A stretch of DNA of 64,000 nucleotides from Escherichia coli (GTDB lineage Bacteria; Pseudomonadota; Gammaproteobacteria; Enterobacterales; Enterobacteriaceae), in the NCBI RefSeq assembly GCF_044324875.1, contig NZ_CP172185.1; one strand, given 5' to 3'. A program made the translations under genes and the position numbers. Each line of letters starts with the position of its first letter. Positions within the stretch are counted from its first letter, which is position 1. Positions 2,031-23,660 of the stretch are shown here, one piece after another. The notes beneath the pieces are model-generated. The model did not search any database. It was not told the DNA's origin and worked only from the letters and a program-made list of their open reading frames with translations.

Positions 2031-3257
2031 ATGAATTACGAATTACTGACCACTGAAAATGCCCCGGTAAAAATGTGGACCAAAGGCGTGCCGGTAGAGG
2101 CCGATGCGCGTCAGCAACTTATTAATACGGCGAAGATGCCGTTTATTTTCAAACATATTGCGGTAATGCCTGATGTACACCTGGGTAAAGGTTCCACCAT
2201 TGGTAGCGTGATCCCAACCAAAGGGGCGATTATTCCGGCGGCGGTGGGCGTGGATATCGGTTGTGGAATGAACGCGCTGCGTACCGCGTTAACGGCGGCA
2301 GACCTGCCGGAAAACCTGGCGGAGCTGCGTCAGGCAATTGAAACTGCCGTGCCGCACGGGCGTACTACCGGGCGTTGTAAACGTGATAAAGGCGCATGGG
2401 AAAACCCGCCTGTTAACGTCGATGCGAAATGGGCTGAGCTTGAAGCCGGTTATCAGTGGTTAACGCAAAAATATCCCCGTTTCCTTAACACTAACAACTA
2501 TAAACACCTGGGAACGCTGGGAACGGGTAACCACTTTATTGAAATCTGCCTTGATGAGTCGGACCAGGTGTGGATTATGCTGCACTCCGGTTCACGCGGA
2601 ATCGGTAATGCCATCGGAACTTACTTTATCGATCTGGCGCAAAAAGAGATGCAGGAAACGCTTGAAACATTGCCGTCGCGTGATCTGGCGTACTTTATGG
2701 AAGGTACGGAATACTTTGATGATTACCTGAAAGCCGTGGCCTGGGCGCAGCTTTTTGCCAGCCTTAACCGCGATGCGATGATGGAAAACGTGGTAACGGC
2801 GTTGCAGAGCATTACGCAGAAAACGGTCAGACAGCCACAAACGCTGGCGATGGAAGAGATCAACTGTCACCACAACTATGTGCAAAAAGAACAGCACTTT
2901 GGTGAAGAGATCTACGTGACGCGTAAAGGCGCGGTGTCTGCGCGTGCTGGTCAATATGGAATTATTCCCGGTTCGATGGGGGCGAAGAGCTTTATCGTCC
3001 GTGGGCTGGGAAATGAAGAGTCGTTCTGTTCGTGCAGCCACGGTGCCGGGCGGGTTATGAGCCGTACTAAAGCGAAAAAAATGTTCAGCGTGGAAGATCA
3101 AATTCGTGCCACCGCGCATGTGGAATGCCGTAAAGATGCCGAAGTGATCGACGAAATCCCGATGGCGTATAAAGATATTGATGCGGTGATGGCGGCACAA
3201 AGCGATCTGGTGGAAGTTATCTATACCCTGCGTCAGGTGGTGTGCGTAAAAGGATAA
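2031..3257 (+). CDS. rtcB: RNA-splicing ligase RtcB
   Basis: 408-aa ORF recognised as RtcB family; immediately followed by rtcA. Confidence 0.95.
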   Translation: MNYELLTTENAPVKMWTKGVPVEADARQQLINTAKMPFIFKHIAVMPDVHLGKGSTIGSVIPTKGAIIPAAVGVDIGCGMNALRTALTAADLPENLAELRQAIETAVPHGRTTGRCKRDKGAWENPPVNVDAKWAELEAGYQWLTQKYPRFLNTNNYKHLGTLGTGNHFIEICLDESDQVWIMLHSGSRGIGNAIGTYFIDLAQKEMQETLETLPSRDLAYFMEGTEYFDDYLKAVAWAQLFASLNRDAMMENVVTALQSITQKTVRQPQTLAMEEINCHHNYVQKEQHFGEEIYVTRKGAVSARAGQYGIIPGSMGAKSFIVRGLGNEESFCSCSHGAGRVMSRTKAKKMFSVEDQIRATAHVECRKDAEVIDEIPMAYKDIDAVMAAQSDLVEVIYTLRQVVCVKG

Positions 3258-4277
<1,020 letters not shown>

Positions 4278-17297: not shown

Positions 17298-17534
17298 TTA
17301 ACGCAGCGCCCACCACTCGCGCAGGCAGGCTTTGCCTTCCGGGCAGCTTTTACAATTGCCAGAGAGGCAGCCGTCAGGTTCTTCCCGAATCCGCACGGCT
17401 TTGCCCATGCTTTCCAGCTGTTGCAGCATGGCGTTAATCATTGGCTGCGGGGTGTTCAATGTCTGGCTTATCTGGGCCGCTTCCATACGGCCCCGTAACG
17501 CCAGCAAATCACGCACCTGAATAAGTGAAGCCAT
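17298..17534 (-). CDS. feoC: ferrous iron transport protein FeoC
   Basis: 78-aa frame starting [11 protein letters not shown], overlapping feoB stop by 1 nt. Confidence 0.85.
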
Positions 17535-19855
17535 TAATGGCAATCACCGGTGGTGTTGGCTGCGCAGCAACTGCTTACCGACTTGCGCGTTGCCAGCAGT
17601 TCGATATCCACCCGGCTACGCGCGCGACGCAGCAAACCGATAACCACGATGTTAAACAGGATAACCGCCAGAATGCACACCAGGCTGTAAGTTGGATGCT
17701 GGCTGTAGCTGGCGACTTGATAGAACAATGTTGCCAGCGAGTAAGCGATATTCAGCCCCCACAGGATGGAGAAGCCCATCCAGCCACGGCTTGATTCACG
17801 GGCGATAGCACCCATCACCGAGATGCACGGTACGTACAGCAGGACGAAAATCAGGTAGCTGTATGCGGCAGCTGCACTACCGAATTTCTGATCCATCACA
17901 CCCATCGCCCCGGTACCCATTTCGCCGTCGCCTTTGCTCGCTTCAATCGGGTTCATCAGTACGCTAAGGCTGAAGGTGTCTTTCAGGCTCTGCCAGGTTT
18001 CATCTACCGCACTGAACAGCTCTTCACCGAGGTTAAATTCCGCCGGATTGAACTCTTCGTCCTGAATATTTTCTGCGGTGTAGAGGGTGTTGAGCGTACC
18101 CACCACCACTTCTTTCGCCATTGCGCCTGTAAACAGGCCAACCGTTGCCTGCCAGTTATCTTCATGCACGCCAATCGGCTTGAAGACTGGGGTGATCACC
18201 CGGCTGACGGAAGCCAGCGCCGAGTCGTTGATGTTATCGACGATTTTCCCGCTCAGAGAGAAGCTGTTGAAAGCACTCAGGAAAATGCTGACGATGATAA
18301 TCACTTTACCAGCACGCAGAACGAAGCCTTTCAGACGCTGCCAGGTCTGGATAATCAGGCTTTTAACGTGTGGTACATGGTAGACCGGCAGCTCCATGAC
18401 AAATGGCGTCGCTTCACCGCGCATGATGGTGTACTTGAGCATCAGGCCAGTCAGCACCGCCATCACGATACCGAGCATATACAGCGAGAAGACCGCCAGC
18501 GCACCGTTCTGCCCGAAGAAGGCAGCCGCGAATACGGCGAAGATAGCCAGACGCGCGCCGCAGGACATAAACGGTGCCATCATGATGGTCATCAGACGTT
18601 CACGCGGTGCATCAAGCGTACGTGCGCCCATTACCGACGGTACGTTACAACCGAAACCAACGATCAGCGGCACAAAGGATTTCCCCGGCAAGCCCAGCGC
18701 CTGCATCAGACGGTCCATCACAAACGCCGCACGCGCCATATATCCGGAGTCCTCGAGGAAGGAGAGGAACAGGTACATCATGCCGATCTGCGGCACCAGT
18801 GGCAGCACGGTGTTAATACCGCCGCCCAGGCCCTGGGCGAGGAAGATAGTCAGCCAGTCCGGGAAGTGGAGCGTGTAGCCAATCCACTGAATACCATGCA
18901 CAAACAGCGCCACGGAACCGACATCAAACAGCGGCTGTAACGCCCCGCCGATGTTGATAGCCAGCAGGAACATCAGGTACATCACAAAGAGGAAAATCGG
19001 CAGACCGAGGAAACGGTTGAGCACGATTTTATCTACCGCAGTGGTGAAACGGCTGGGTTCTGCCGTCAGGGTGTTGCTTACCACATCACAGATGGCAGCA
19101 ATGCACTGGTAACGCGCATCGGCAATGTGCAGCGCCGGATCGTCCATCTCATTACGCAGACGGGCGAGGGCGGCATCCAGATGCTGCGACGCTTCACCGG
19201 CGTAGGCGCGGCTGTAGATATCGCCTTCCAGCATTTGCAGGCCCAGCCAGCGACGTTGTTTCAGCGGGATGTCGGAAGGCATCACTTTTGCCAGTGAATC
19301 TGCTTCGTTGAGCAGCGGCTGTGCGTAATGCACCAGTTCCACATTCTCGTTAGCTTTATAGCGATCAATCGCCAGCTTGAGCGCTTCAATACCGCGACCA
19401 CGGGTTGAAACCAGCGGGATCACCGGGCAGCCAAGACGCGCCGACAGAGCATCAATTTCAATACGAATATTTTGCTTCTCGGCAATGTCGAGCATGTTCA
19501 GTGCCACGATGCAGGGAATGCCGAGTTCCAGCAGTTGCAGCGTCAGGTACAGGTTACGCTCAAGGTTAGACGCATCCACCACGTTAATCAGCAGGTCGGC
19601 GTCGCCACTCAGAATATAGTGACAGGCGATTTGCTCATCGAGCGAGGTCTGCGATGAGATGGTGGTCAGAGAATAGGTGCCGGGCAGGTCCACCAGCGTG
19701 ACCTGATGATCGGTGGTGGAGAATTGCCCTTCTTTACGTTCGACGGTAACGCCAGCCCAGTTACCTACACGCTGACGTGCGCCAGTGAGCTGGTTAAATA
19801 AGGTTGTCTTGCCAGAATTTGGATTACCAATTAAGCCAATGGTTAATTTTTTCAT
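17534..19855 (-). CDS. feoB: ferrous iron transporter FeoB (GTPase-permease)
   Basis: 773-aa frame from [21 protein letters not shown]; N-terminal G-domain then polytopic membrane domain. Confidence 0.95.
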
Positions 19856-19871
19856 TGTTGTTATCACCGTA

Positions 19872-20099
19872 TTAACAGGAAACCGCTTCCACTTCTAATA
19901 AGGCCAGATCTTTTTTGCGTAATACCAGGCTCACTCGACGGGTTTCGATATGAATGGGGTCGCCAAGTGGAGCGACGCGCACCACATTAAAAGAGGAGCC
20001 AGGTAACATGCCAAGAGAAAGCAGTTTTTGGCGATATGCCGGGCTGATTTCACGGGAAAAGCCAGTGATTTTCCACGCAGTATCTGGAGTGTATTGCAT
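19872..20099 (-). CDS. feoA: ferrous iron transport protein FeoA
   Basis: 75-aa ORF 4 bp upstream of feoB. Confidence 0.9.
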
Positions 20100-20206
20100 A
20101 GGTGCCTACTTGTTTCTCATTAACTGGATAACTACCTCATGGGGCGTTTGACAGCGACATGAGACCAGATGATTTGCCAACGAAGGAGAGATTAAATAAT
20201 CAACAA

Positions 20207-20225
20207 CACAATGATAATGAGAATG
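20207..20225. promoter_or_regulatory. candidate Fur box in feoA promoter
   Basis: aatgataatgagaat matches the Fur consensus core (GATAATGATAATCATTATC) at about 12 of 15 positions, about 110 bp upstream of feoA. Confidence 0.45.
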
Positions 20226-20288
20226 GTTTCTATCAGCAATACTTAAAATGTGTGCGAATGTTGGTTTGAATAATAATCTGACTCAATG

Positions 20289-20302
20289 TTGATGTGGCTC
20301 AA
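20289..20302. promoter_or_regulatory. candidate FNR/CRP-family half-site pair upstream of feoA
   Basis: TTGAT-gtgg-CTCAA resembles the FNR consensus TTGAT-N4-ATCAA. Confidence 0.25.
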
Positions 20303-20482
20303 GGTTATATCGCAGCGAAAATATAATTCGAATAGCGAATTACCAGGACTGGTTAATGTTTAATTAAGGTTTCAGTTGTTAATGAAGTGATAAATATTAA
20401 CGGGATATATTGAGAGTTTGGTTGTGGAATAAAAAGGCCGGAGATATTCTCCGGCACTTTTATGTCAGGCAAGGCGTTCGTT

Positions 20483-20515
20483 GCCAGATGCGGCGTGAAC
20501 GCCTTATCTGGTAGG
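20483..20515. repeat. REP element downstream of yhgF
   Basis: gccagatgcggcgtgaacgccttatctggtagg. Confidence 0.5.
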
Positions 20516-20538
20516 TTTACGTTTGTCTATCAGGGCGT

Positions 20539-22860
20539 TTAACGTTTTTTGCCCATTGCCGCCGCCAGCGCATCCATCATCGCGCTGTTACCGGCAGGCT
20601 GCGCTTCACGCCCACGCGGTTTGGCTGCCGGGCGGTTGTTTTGCGGGCGTTCATTACCGCCGCCGCGACGGGCGTTGGTTTCGCCAGGCTGCTCGTCCAG
20701 ACGCATAGTCAGGGCGATACGTTTACGCTGAAGATCGACTTCCAGCACTTTCACCTTCACAATGTCGCCCGCTTTCACCACGGTATGCGGATCTTCCACA
20801 AACTTATTCGACAATGAAGAGATGTGAACCAGGCCGTCCTGATGCACGCCGATATCGACAAACGCGCCAAAGTTGGTGACGTTGGTCACCGCGCCTTCGA
20901 GGATCATACCCGGTTGCAGGTCGTTCATTGTCTCGACGCCATCAGCAAACTGAGCGGTTTTAAATTCCGGACGCGGATCGCGACCCGGTTTTTCCAGCTC
21001 TTTGATGATGTCAGTTACTGTCGGCACACCGAATTTCTCATCAGTAAAGTCAGACGCTTTCAGGTTACGCAGCTCGCTGCTGTTACCCATCAGATCTTTC
21101 AGTGCCTGCTGTGTTGCTGCCAGAATGCGTTCCACCACCGGATAGGCTTCCGGGTGAACGGTAGAGGCGTCCAGCGGGTTATCGCCGTGGTTAATACGCA
21201 GGAAGCCCGCACATTGCTCGAAGGCTTTCGGCCCCAGACGGCTCACTTTCAGCAGTTGCTGACGGTTCTGGAACTGACCGTTCTCATCGCGCCAGGCCAC
21301 GATGTTTTGCGCCATCATGCGCGTCAGGCCCGCCACGCGAGTTAACAGCGGAACAGAAGCGGTGTTGAGATCGACGCCAACAGCGTTTACGCAGTCTTCT
21401 ACTACTGCATCCAGTTTGCGGGCCAGCTGCGTCTGGCTGACGTCATGCTGATACTGACCTACGCCGATAGATTTCGGATCGATTTTCACTAGCTCCGCCA
21501 GCGGATCTTGCAAACGACGGGCGATAGATACCGCGCCACGCAGCGAAACGTCGAGATCCGGGAACTCCTGCGCTGCCAGCTCGGAAGCCGAGTAAACCGA
21601 CGCGCCTGCTTCGCTGACGATCACTTTCTGCGCGGTCACTTTCGGGAACTGCTTCTGCACGTCGAGATAGAAACGCTCAGTTTCGCGGGAAGCTGTACCG
21701 TTGCCGATCGCCACCAGTTCAACATTATGCTTTTCACACAGGGCAGCAACGGTCATCGCTGCTTTTGCGGCTTGTCCGGTGTGCGGGTAAATGGTATCGG
21801 TCGCCACCAGTTTGCCAGTTGCATCGACCACCGCTACTTTTACCCCGGTACGCAGACCCGGATCGAGGCCCATCGTTGCACGCAGTCCGGCTGGGGCCGC
21901 CATCAGCAGATCGTGCAGGTTACGGGCAAAGACGTTGATTGCTTCATCTTCCGCGCGTTCGCGCACGGTGCCCATCAGTTCGGTTTCCAGATGCATCAGC
22001 ACCTTGATGCGCCACGTCCAGCTCACCACGCCTTTGCGCCAGCTATCCGCCGGGGCATTGTTCAGGCGCAGGCCGAGATGATCCATAATGATTTGCTCGC
22101 AATAGCTCTCTTTTGGCGGCTCATCGAACTGCGGATCGGCATTCAGCGAAAGTTGGAGTACGCCTTCGTTACGCCCACGGAACATCGCCAGCGCGCGGTG
22201 AGAAGGCACCGTTGACAGCGGTTCGTGATGATCGAAATAGTCGCGGAATTTCGCCCCTTCCTCTTCTTTACCACTCACCACCGTAGAAACCAAATGCGCG
22301 TTCTTCCACAGATAATCACGCACTTTCGCCAGCAGCGCGGCATCTTCGGCAAACCGTTCCATCAGGATATAGCGCGCGCCGTCCAGCGCGGCTTTGGTAT
22401 CTGCCACGCCTTTATCGGCATCAACATATTGTGCAGCGGCGACTTCTGGCGTGTGTGATGGAGAGCTCCACAGCAGGTCAGCCAACGGCTCAAGCCCTGC
22501 TTCAATGGCGATTTGCCCGCGGGTGCGGCGTTTAGGTTTGTAGGGCAGGTAGAGGTCTTCGAGTTCGGTTTTGCTTAGTGTGGCGTTGATGGCATTCGCC
22601 AGCTCGTCAGTGAGTTTGCCTTGCTCGGAAATGGACTTGAGGATCGCCTGACGTCTCTCTTCCAGCTCGCGCAGATAGCTCAGACGCGTTTCCAGATTAC
22701 GCAGCTGCGTGTCATCCAGACCGCCGGTGATTTCCTTACGATAACGTGCGATAAACGGCACGGTATTCCCTTCGTCAAGCAGGCGAACGGCAGCGTCAAC
22801 CTGTTCCGGGCGCGCCTGAATTTCACCCGCAATAATGCGGCAGAACGAATCATTCATCAT
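20539..22860 (-). CDS. yhgF: Tex-like transcription accessory protein (S1 RNA-binding domain)
   Basis: 773-aa ORF recognised as YhgF/Tex; C-terminal S1 domain and basic tail. Confidence 0.9.
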
Positions 22861-23433: not shown

Positions 23434-23660
23434 CTCGTTGATTCCCTTTGTCTGTTTGATAATGCGCACATTGGGTATAACGTGATCATATCAACAGAAT
23501 CAATAATGTTTCGCCGAATAAATTGTATACTTAAGCTGCTGTTTAATATGCTTTGTAACAATTTAGGCTGAAATTCATACCAGATTTAGCTGGTGACGAA
23601 CGTGAGCTTTTTTAAGAATACACGCTTACAAATTGTTGCGAACCTTTGGGAGTACAAACA

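Follow-up and report, generated by a model that had tools for sequence, protein, structure and literature searches.

We analyzed a 64-kb stretch of Escherichia coli DNA, here called the window, and focused on positions 20100-20538, which RefSeq annotation of the identical region and of K-12 MG1655 identifies as the 439-bp intergenic region between yhgF and feoA. The upstream neighbor is the coding sequence of yhgF (tex; 20539-22860, minus strand), which is annotated by RefSeq and whose product matches the Pfam families Tex_N, Tex_central, Tex_YqgF, HHH, and S1. On the other side lies the feoABC operon (17298-20099, minus strand), made up of feoA (19872-20099; Pfam FeoA), feoB (17534-19855; Pfam FeoB_N/Gate/FeoB_C), and feoC (17298-17534; Pfam FeoC), all on the minus strand and all in agreement with the RefSeq annotation. 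The intergenic region has a G+C content of 36% compared to 53% for the window as a whole, shows 100% identity to several complete E. coli genomes, and was detected in all but one of 5,426 complete genomes (5,425).

The same locus in K-12 carries the well-studied feoA promoter, feoAp (Kammler et al., 1993), which has been mapped genome-wide by Myers et al. (2013), Park et al. (2013), Beauchene et al. (2015), and Gao et al. (2023). Fur, FNR, and ArcA sites occur at the same relative positions in K-12 and in the window, and the two differ only at the strain level: both the Fur and the FNR motifs are identical, the stretch that runs from the FNR site down to the ATG of feoA has a single mismatch, located in the 5' UTR, a few SNPs (one of them in the spacer of the ArcA/OmpR motif) occur between the yhgF terminator and the FNR site, and a 17-bp indel is found beside the REP element. 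Because of this near-identity across the promoter, the published K-12 maps can be transferred directly to the window. For the promoter part, the K-12 NC_000913.3 coordinate equals 3560262 minus the window coordinate, and U00096.2 coordinates are shifted by 1978 relative to NC_000913.3, a value verified with two independent published site sequences.

For comparison across the Enterobacteriaceae, 63 loci were retrieved with a degenerate pattern for the conserved N-terminus of FeoA, and in all 63 the feoA ATG was found at the expected place. Phylogenetic footprinting was carried out on the 56 sequences, the window included, that had at least 400 bp of upstream DNA and an FNR-type anchor.

The yhgF-proximal end of the region is occupied by elements of the yhgF transcription unit. 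A single REP element (20483-20517, no strand assigned) lies just 3' of yhgF, starting 22 bp past the stop codon, and was identified by consensus match and by hairpin alignment. Its segment 20483-20512 agrees with a REP consensus at 27 of 30 positions, where no such match would be expected by chance, and the pairing of its stem is preserved by the compensatory change CCGG to CCAG / CCGG to CTGG. The K-12 RefSeq annotation lists no repeat feature at this position. Further downstream, a terminator scan and RNA folding both placed an intrinsic terminator of yhgF at 20428-20455 (minus strand), in which the hairpin GCCGGAGAATATCTCCGGC (20437-20455) is followed by the T-run CTTTTTATT (20455-20428 for the two together, read on the minus strand); the hairpin has an 8-bp stem with six G-C pairs and a 3-nt loop, followed by CUUUUUAUU. 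The 3' region of yhgF (20420-20545) folds with a free energy of -42.6 kcal/mol (z = -6.6 compared to shuffled sequences). Thus, the REP element and the hairpin that had been predicted downstream of yhgF are both real.

Next to feoA we infer a sigma-70-type promoter, with a -35 hexamer TTGCTG (20234-20239, minus strand), a 17-bp spacer, a -10 hexamer TATCAT (20211-20216, minus strand), and a start near 20205. The approximate transcription start site (20205, minus strand) was back-calculated from Park et al. (2013; PMC3798270), who gave the location of an ArcA site as -191 to -171 relative to the "mapped TSS"; counting from that site puts the start at U00096.2 position 3538079, which corresponds to window position 20205, and the -10 hexamer was assigned from its position relative to this implied start. 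No promoter was called in the region when it was scanned with the sigma-70 consensus, but this result is uninformative, as the scan demands four of six matches per hexamer and the -35 hexamer here matches at three of six. Across the footprint sample, the TTG of the -35 hexamer is kept in 53 of 56 species and the -10 TATCAT in 50 of 56, with TACCAT or TATTAT in the other six.

With a start at this position, the feoA 5' UTR would measure about 105 nt (20100-20204, minus strand). The original prediction had described the intergenic region as a 440-bp leader; this description did not hold, as only these ~105 nt are transcribed leader and the remainder consists of upstream regulatory DNA, the yhgF terminator, and the REP element. 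The length of the region could instead be due to a further functional RNA encoded there, such as a small RNA or a feoA leader with a riboswitch-like structure, and two Rfam families indeed gave matches below their gathering cut-offs: the REP-derived family naRNA4 (32.1 bits, cut-off 59.5) and STnc390 (26.9 bits, cut-off 50). However, naRNA4 matched the hairpin of the REP element and STnc390 that of the terminator, and both candidate small-RNA genes were therefore rejected. No Rfam family reached its threshold in the region, and none matched the feoA 5' UTR, which showed no structure beyond chance upon folding (z = 0.15 compared to shuffled sequences). Furthermore, the inferred 5' UTR is as short as 33 nt in some species and as long as 111 nt in others, and about 70 nt of it are absent in Enterobacter, Leclercia, and Lelliottia. 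We therefore consider an extra RNA very improbable and read the region as the end of the yhgF transcription unit followed by the feoABC promoter.

We then analyzed the Fur operator of this promoter. Fur sites were defined by the 19-bp consensus GATAATGATAATCATTATC, or by arrays of GATAAT-like hexamers in a 6-bp register, with a matrix score that exceeds a validated threshold. The predicted Fur box at 20210-20224 reads AATGATAATGAGAAT on the plus strand, has the core ATTATCAT, and is part of a larger operator (20204-20237, minus strand) that holds three phased 19-mers (20207-20225, 20213-20231, and 20219-20237), which match the consensus in 6-bp register at 13/19 (20207), 13/19 (20213), and 12/19 (20219) positions. 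Such phased matches are a hallmark of operators bound by Fur. A single consensus match is only weakly discriminating, with at least 13/19 reached at 15 positions in the window, and the phased-triple score and published information-theory scores were used in place of a count of single sites. By this measure the phased triple ranks first in the 64-kb window and has a probability of ~0.008 in composition-matched randomizations. The highest single score in the window, 15/19 at 52250, falls within the coding sequence of yhfX and was taken as a chance match.

Published data place Fur at the same DNA. Gao et al. (2023; PMC10164565) reported a Fur ChIP-exo peak, P104, at 3538047-3538080, which was present under iron-replete conditions only and corresponds to window positions 20237-20204. 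Chen et al. (2007) scored overlapping Fur sites of 13.4 and 10.9 bits, which correspond to window positions 20219 and 20225, with a genome-scan cut-off of 10 bits, and noted that footprinting of the exact Fur regions was lacking. Relative to the inferred start at 20205, the Fur box extends over -19 to -5 and the ChIP-exo peak over -32 to +2; the operator thus overlaps the core promoter, with the -10 hexamer inside it and the peak reaching from the -35 hexamer as far as the start. The operator block GATAnAAACCATTCTCATTATCAT is almost invariant in the 56 species, as is the block TTGnnGATAnAAACCATTCTCATTATCAT that comprises the -35 hexamer, the Fur box, and the -10 hexamer. Consistent with Fur acting at this site, feoA was repressed by Fur anaerobically in lacZ fusions (Beauchene et al., 2015; PMC4676285), and several E. 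coli strains showed differential expression of the Fur targets feoA and feoB (Gao et al., 2023).

We also observed a second, weaker cluster of Fur boxes further upstream, GAGTCAGATTATTATTCAAACCAAC (~20260-20290, minus strand), which the original prediction did not include. It consists of three 11/19 matches in 6-bp register, adjoins and slightly overlaps the FNR site, and has a moderately conserved AAATTAT core. A 10.5-bit Fur site scored by Chen et al. (2007) corresponds to window position 20278 and agrees with one of the two Fur boxes of Kammler et al. This cluster lies outside the Fur ChIP-exo peak.

The FNR binding site TTGAGCCACATCAA is located at 20289-20302 on the minus strand, the strand of feo, and the window reads TTGATGTGGCTCAA at these positions on the plus strand. 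We scored it with a symmetric position-weight matrix built from 62 other ChIP-bound sites (Myers et al., 2013), from which feoA was left out. The site reached 15.96 bits, above the median of the training sites (15.76 bits), and ranked first among all 14-mers on both strands of the 64 kb, the second-best scoring 12.3 bits; a score this high was reached in 0.5% of first-order Markov randomizations of the intergenic region. Its form, TTGAG-CCAC-ATCAA, agrees with TTGAT-N4-ATCAA at nine of ten half-site positions. Myers et al. (2013; PMC3688515) list the same sequence in their Table S6 at U00096.2 position 3537982 (window 20302-20289), at an FNR ChIP-seq peak, with a PatSer score of 14.6 and ln p of -13.13 relative to a threshold of -10.75; the peak itself (their Table S5, position 3537996, window 20288) lies 7.5 bp from the center of the site. 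They list feoA as FNR-activated in nitrate and found FNR-dependent expression to be absent in iron-replete glucose medium, which they explained by masking by Fur. Kammler et al. (1993) is the source to which the literature traces FNR activation of feo, and Beauchene et al. (2015) ascribed the anaerobic expression of feoA to ArcA and FNR.

The FNR site is conserved in the manner expected of a binding site. The best-scoring site upstream of feoA was of the FNR type in 56 of the 57 sequences with enough upstream DNA. On its left side, 48 species carry the half-site TTGAG and 8 carry TTGCG; on its right side, 40 carry ATCAA and 16 carry GTCAA. The N4 spacer occurs in 12 different forms among the 56 species. 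This combination of conserved half-sites and a variable spacer is the pattern expected of an inverted repeat bound by a protein.

Given that the intergenic DNA is AT-rich (36% G+C, 53% in the window) and that matches of 13/19 to the Fur consensus are fairly common, the two motifs might have arisen by chance and lack a regulatory role. Several results argue against this: each motif ranks first in the window when the suitable score is applied, with randomization P values of 0.005 for FNR and 0.008 for Fur, both coincide with ChIP peaks in vivo, and both are conserved in sequence and spacing across the 56 species while the flanking DNA has diverged. We thus regard a chance origin as hardly credible. 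Matrix scoring put both motifs above published thresholds, and Fur and FNR have been mapped at the motifs themselves, so that the two sites stand as originally predicted: the Fur box lies inside a ChIP-exo peak, exceeds the 10-bit cut-off, and belongs to the top-ranked phased triple, and the FNR site combines a ChIP-seq peak and a high PatSer score with the first rank by our own matrix. The accompanying proposal, that ferrous iron uptake is controlled by iron and anaerobiosis through this region, fits the published repression by Fur and the anaerobic expression linked to ArcA and FNR.

We next considered the position of the FNR site relative to the core promoter. With the start inferred from the -10 hexamer, the center of the site lies at -90.5 in 44 species and at -89.5 in 12. 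Activation by FNR is expected from -41.5 in class II promoters, and from -61.5 or helical repeats further upstream in class I promoters; -90.5 is near the -92.5 face, although it does not coincide with it. The distance from the site to the ATG varies by about 70 bp across species. As the position relative to the -10 hexamer is fixed while the length of the 5' UTR varies, the FNR site appears to be tied to the core promoter and not to the coding sequence, and its constancy across 56 species argues that the position matters. A center at -90.5 is rare: in the FNR literature, the site is at -41.5 in most activated promoters, and very few sites lie at -61.5 or further upstream.

The prevalence of -41.5 suggests another reading, in which FNR acts on another promoter, of class II, whose start would lie about 41.5 bp downstream of the site, near 20254, so that the operon would have two promoters. 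Two promoters have been reported for the feoABC operon of Yersinia pestis, the downstream one being the target of Fur, and in the window a TATTAT hexamer is present at 20275-20270. However, just 13 bp separate this hexamer from the FNR half-site, compared to the roughly 22 bp of a class II arrangement, and the position at which the -10 would be required (20266-20261) reads AACCAA, a poor match. In addition, the distance of the FNR site is fixed to the TATCAT -10 hexamer in the 56 species and not to any nearer -10-like element, and the supplementary table of Myers et al. (2013) gives a single feoA promoter. A second promoter is therefore quite improbable, and we favor a single feoA promoter with its start near 20205 and a distal FNR site.

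Upstream of the FNR site lies an ArcA direct-repeat site, TTGTTAATGAAGTGATAAATA (20376-20396, plus strand; Park et al., 2013, Tables S3, S4, and S6), listed at U00096.2 3537888-3537908 with 17.6 bits and located under an ArcA ChIP peak; in an arcA mutant, feoABC expression was 3.7-fold lower (Park et al., 2013). The OmpR candidate motif TTATCAnnnnnTTAACA occupies the same DNA, and purified OmpR shifted only the fragment that carried this motif (Gerken et al., 2020; PMC7315122). The common motif, TTATCAC-N4-TTAACA, is conserved across genera. The original prediction did not mention this ArcA/OmpR site.

Cross-genus conservation drew out two further blocks. The first, GAAACCTTAATTAAACATTAA, is a 21-bp block at 20352-20372 (minus strand) that is kept in Escherichia, Salmonella, Citrobacter, Klebsiella, and Raoultella and absent from the Enterobacter/Leclercia/Lelliottia type; in the literature consulted we found no assignment of this block to a regulator. 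The second, an RstA/OmpR-like TACA-N6-TACA block at 20246-20264 (minus strand), reads CCAACATTCGCACACATTT in the window and ACATTCCGTCACATTT in most genera, and is likewise conserved across genera. Gerken et al. (2020) proposed its motif as a candidate, but unphosphorylated OmpR did not shift a fragment that carried this motif only; for the Salmonella feo promoter, an RstA motif (TACA-N6-TACA) and binding of RstA have been reported.

The fixed and rare geometry of FNR, the response-regulator-like ACATTCCGTCACATTT block that lies between the FNR site and the -35 hexamer at about -59 to -41, and the conserved block at 20352-20372 raise the idea of an obligate composite promoter, in which activation by FNR would require a partner factor at about -50, of the RstA/OmpR type or another, and would not proceed through the standard class I or class II contacts. 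We mention this as an unlikely, though not negligible, possibility. The reading that we prefer is a promoter with several inputs, in which repression by Fur is superimposed on activation by FNR and ArcA, and we are highly confident that the intergenic region represents the end of the yhgF transcription unit together with this known feoABC promoter.

Comparison with known systems showed where this promoter is typical and where it departs from the norm. Classical Fur-repressed promoters, such as those of fhuA, fepA, and ryhB, carry the operator over the -35 and -10 hexamers. The feo operator resembles them in its overlapping 19-bp matches in 6-bp register over the core promoter and in its iron-dependent occupancy, and Fur-repressed promoters have been modeled as clusters of overlapping Fur sites (Chen et al., 2007). 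It differs from them in that the feo site is of moderate strength (13.4 bits compared to 20-27 bits for the strongest sites cited) and in that repression is visible only anaerobically, because the promoter needs activation by ArcA and FNR. With the class II FNR promoters (narG, nirB, and dmsA; -41.5), feo shares a site of the TTGAT-N4-ATCAA type, a comparable matrix score, and occupancy in vivo. In contrast to these promoters, the feo site is distal, at about -90.5, and its activation involves ArcA as well and is masked by Fur.

Among the feo promoters of other species, that of Salmonella enterica has the FNR site, the Fur/-10 block, and a TACA-N6-TCACA block in common with E. coli, with equal spacing. 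In place of the Salmonella RstA box, the E. coli RstA-like block reads CAACA-N5-CACACA and is not bound by unphosphorylated OmpR. The Y. pestis feo promoter, in contrast, has been reported to have no DNA similarity to that of E. coli and to be independent of Fnr and ArcA.

Taken together, these data suggest how the promoter may work. In the 5' to 3' direction of the minus strand, the region runs from the stop codon of yhgF through the REP element and the terminator to an upstream activating region with the ArcA and FNR sites, the inferred sigma-70 core, and the 105-nt 5' UTR. Published mapping on the identical K-12 sequence shows that, in vivo, Fe2+-Fur occupies 20204-20237, FNR occupies TTGAG-N4-ATCAA, and ArcA occupies the distal repeats. 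When iron is plentiful, Fur dimers would bind the three overlapping 19-bp matches in their 6-bp register, from -35 to -10, and block RNA polymerase, an arrangement that would amount to classical repression by promoter occlusion. When oxygen is absent, [4Fe-4S]-FNR at -90.5 and phosphorylated ArcA at -191 to -171 would increase transcription. FNR probably acts from its distal, class-I-like position via the C-terminal domain of the polymerase alpha subunit, a contact that we infer with caution because -90.5 is unusual for FNR activation. The weaker upstream Fur cluster, which adjoins the FNR site, could moreover let Fur interfere with FNR. The net outcome would be that ferrous iron uptake is induced anaerobically and turned off by iron.

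Control of feoABC by Fur, FNR, and ArcA is already known and is a textbook case of regulation by iron and oxygen in this species. The analysis thus adds no new biology to this system, and it reveals that true regulatory sites can be recognized from sequence alone. Its by-products are comparative: the unusual distal position of the FNR site is strictly conserved family-wide, and the promoter carries an upstream block at 20352-20372 that is conserved in several genera.

The FNR site of the feo promoter (20289-20302) held a fixed position relative to the inferred feoA start site across relatives. Its centre lay at -90.5 or -89.5 in all 56 sequences that carry an FNR-type anchor upstream of feoA, the set on which this count is based (retrieved feo loci L003-L065, together with 20205-20302 of the window). 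The spacing stayed constant while the inferred feoA 5' UTR ranged from 33 to 111 nt in the same sequences. At one further locus, L020, the FNR-type site was missing upstream of feoA. The FNR geometry of feo is therefore unusually distal as well as strictly conserved.

We also compared feoA upstream DNA between genera. A 21-bp block on the minus strand, GAAACCTTAATTAAACATTAA (20352-20372), which lies between the ArcA site (20376-20396) and the FNR site, was kept in Escherichia, Salmonella, Citrobacter, Klebsiella, and Raoultella; feo promoters of the Enterobacter/Leclercia/Lelliottia type were without it. The accessible literature names no regulator for this block; it may continue the ArcA repeats or be the site of another factor.

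On the yhgF side, this strain lacks 17 bases that stand next to the REP element in K-12 (20490-20535 of the window), and these include the inverted repeat CCTACG...CGTAGG; the K-12 RefSeq record annotates no repeat feature in the yhgF-feoA intergenic region. Because of this 17-bp indel, window coordinates are approximate for the Fur ChIP-exo peak P103 (U00096.2 3534739-3534772; Gao et al. 2023, PMC10164565), which falls inside the window in the ompR-greB intergenic region (~23495-23528) and was present under iron-replete and iron-starved conditions alike. The highest score of any single site in the window against the Fur consensus, 15/19, falls at 52250 within yhfX and is probably due to chance, since the site is inside coding sequence. 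The surrounding segment (52150-52370) reached a best identity of only 91% among 5,426 complete E. coli genomes, mostly 80-90%, unlike the feo intergenic region, which finds 100% matches in complete E. coli genomes. Thus, 52150-52370 is either an allele of unusual divergence or a recombinant segment.

Published anaerobic H-NS ChIP-chip peaks (U00096.2 3537506-3537770 and 3538104-3538618, corresponding to ~20514-20778 and ~19666-20180 of the window) lie on either side of the feo promoter and leave the core from FNR to Fur free. In the swine isolate E. coli PEC301 (locus L066), the promoter itself is interrupted by the IS30-family element ISApl1 (locus positions 2575-3549), inserted with the FNR site on one side and the -35 hexamer on the other, such that the core feo promoter is cut off from both the FNR and ArcA sites.
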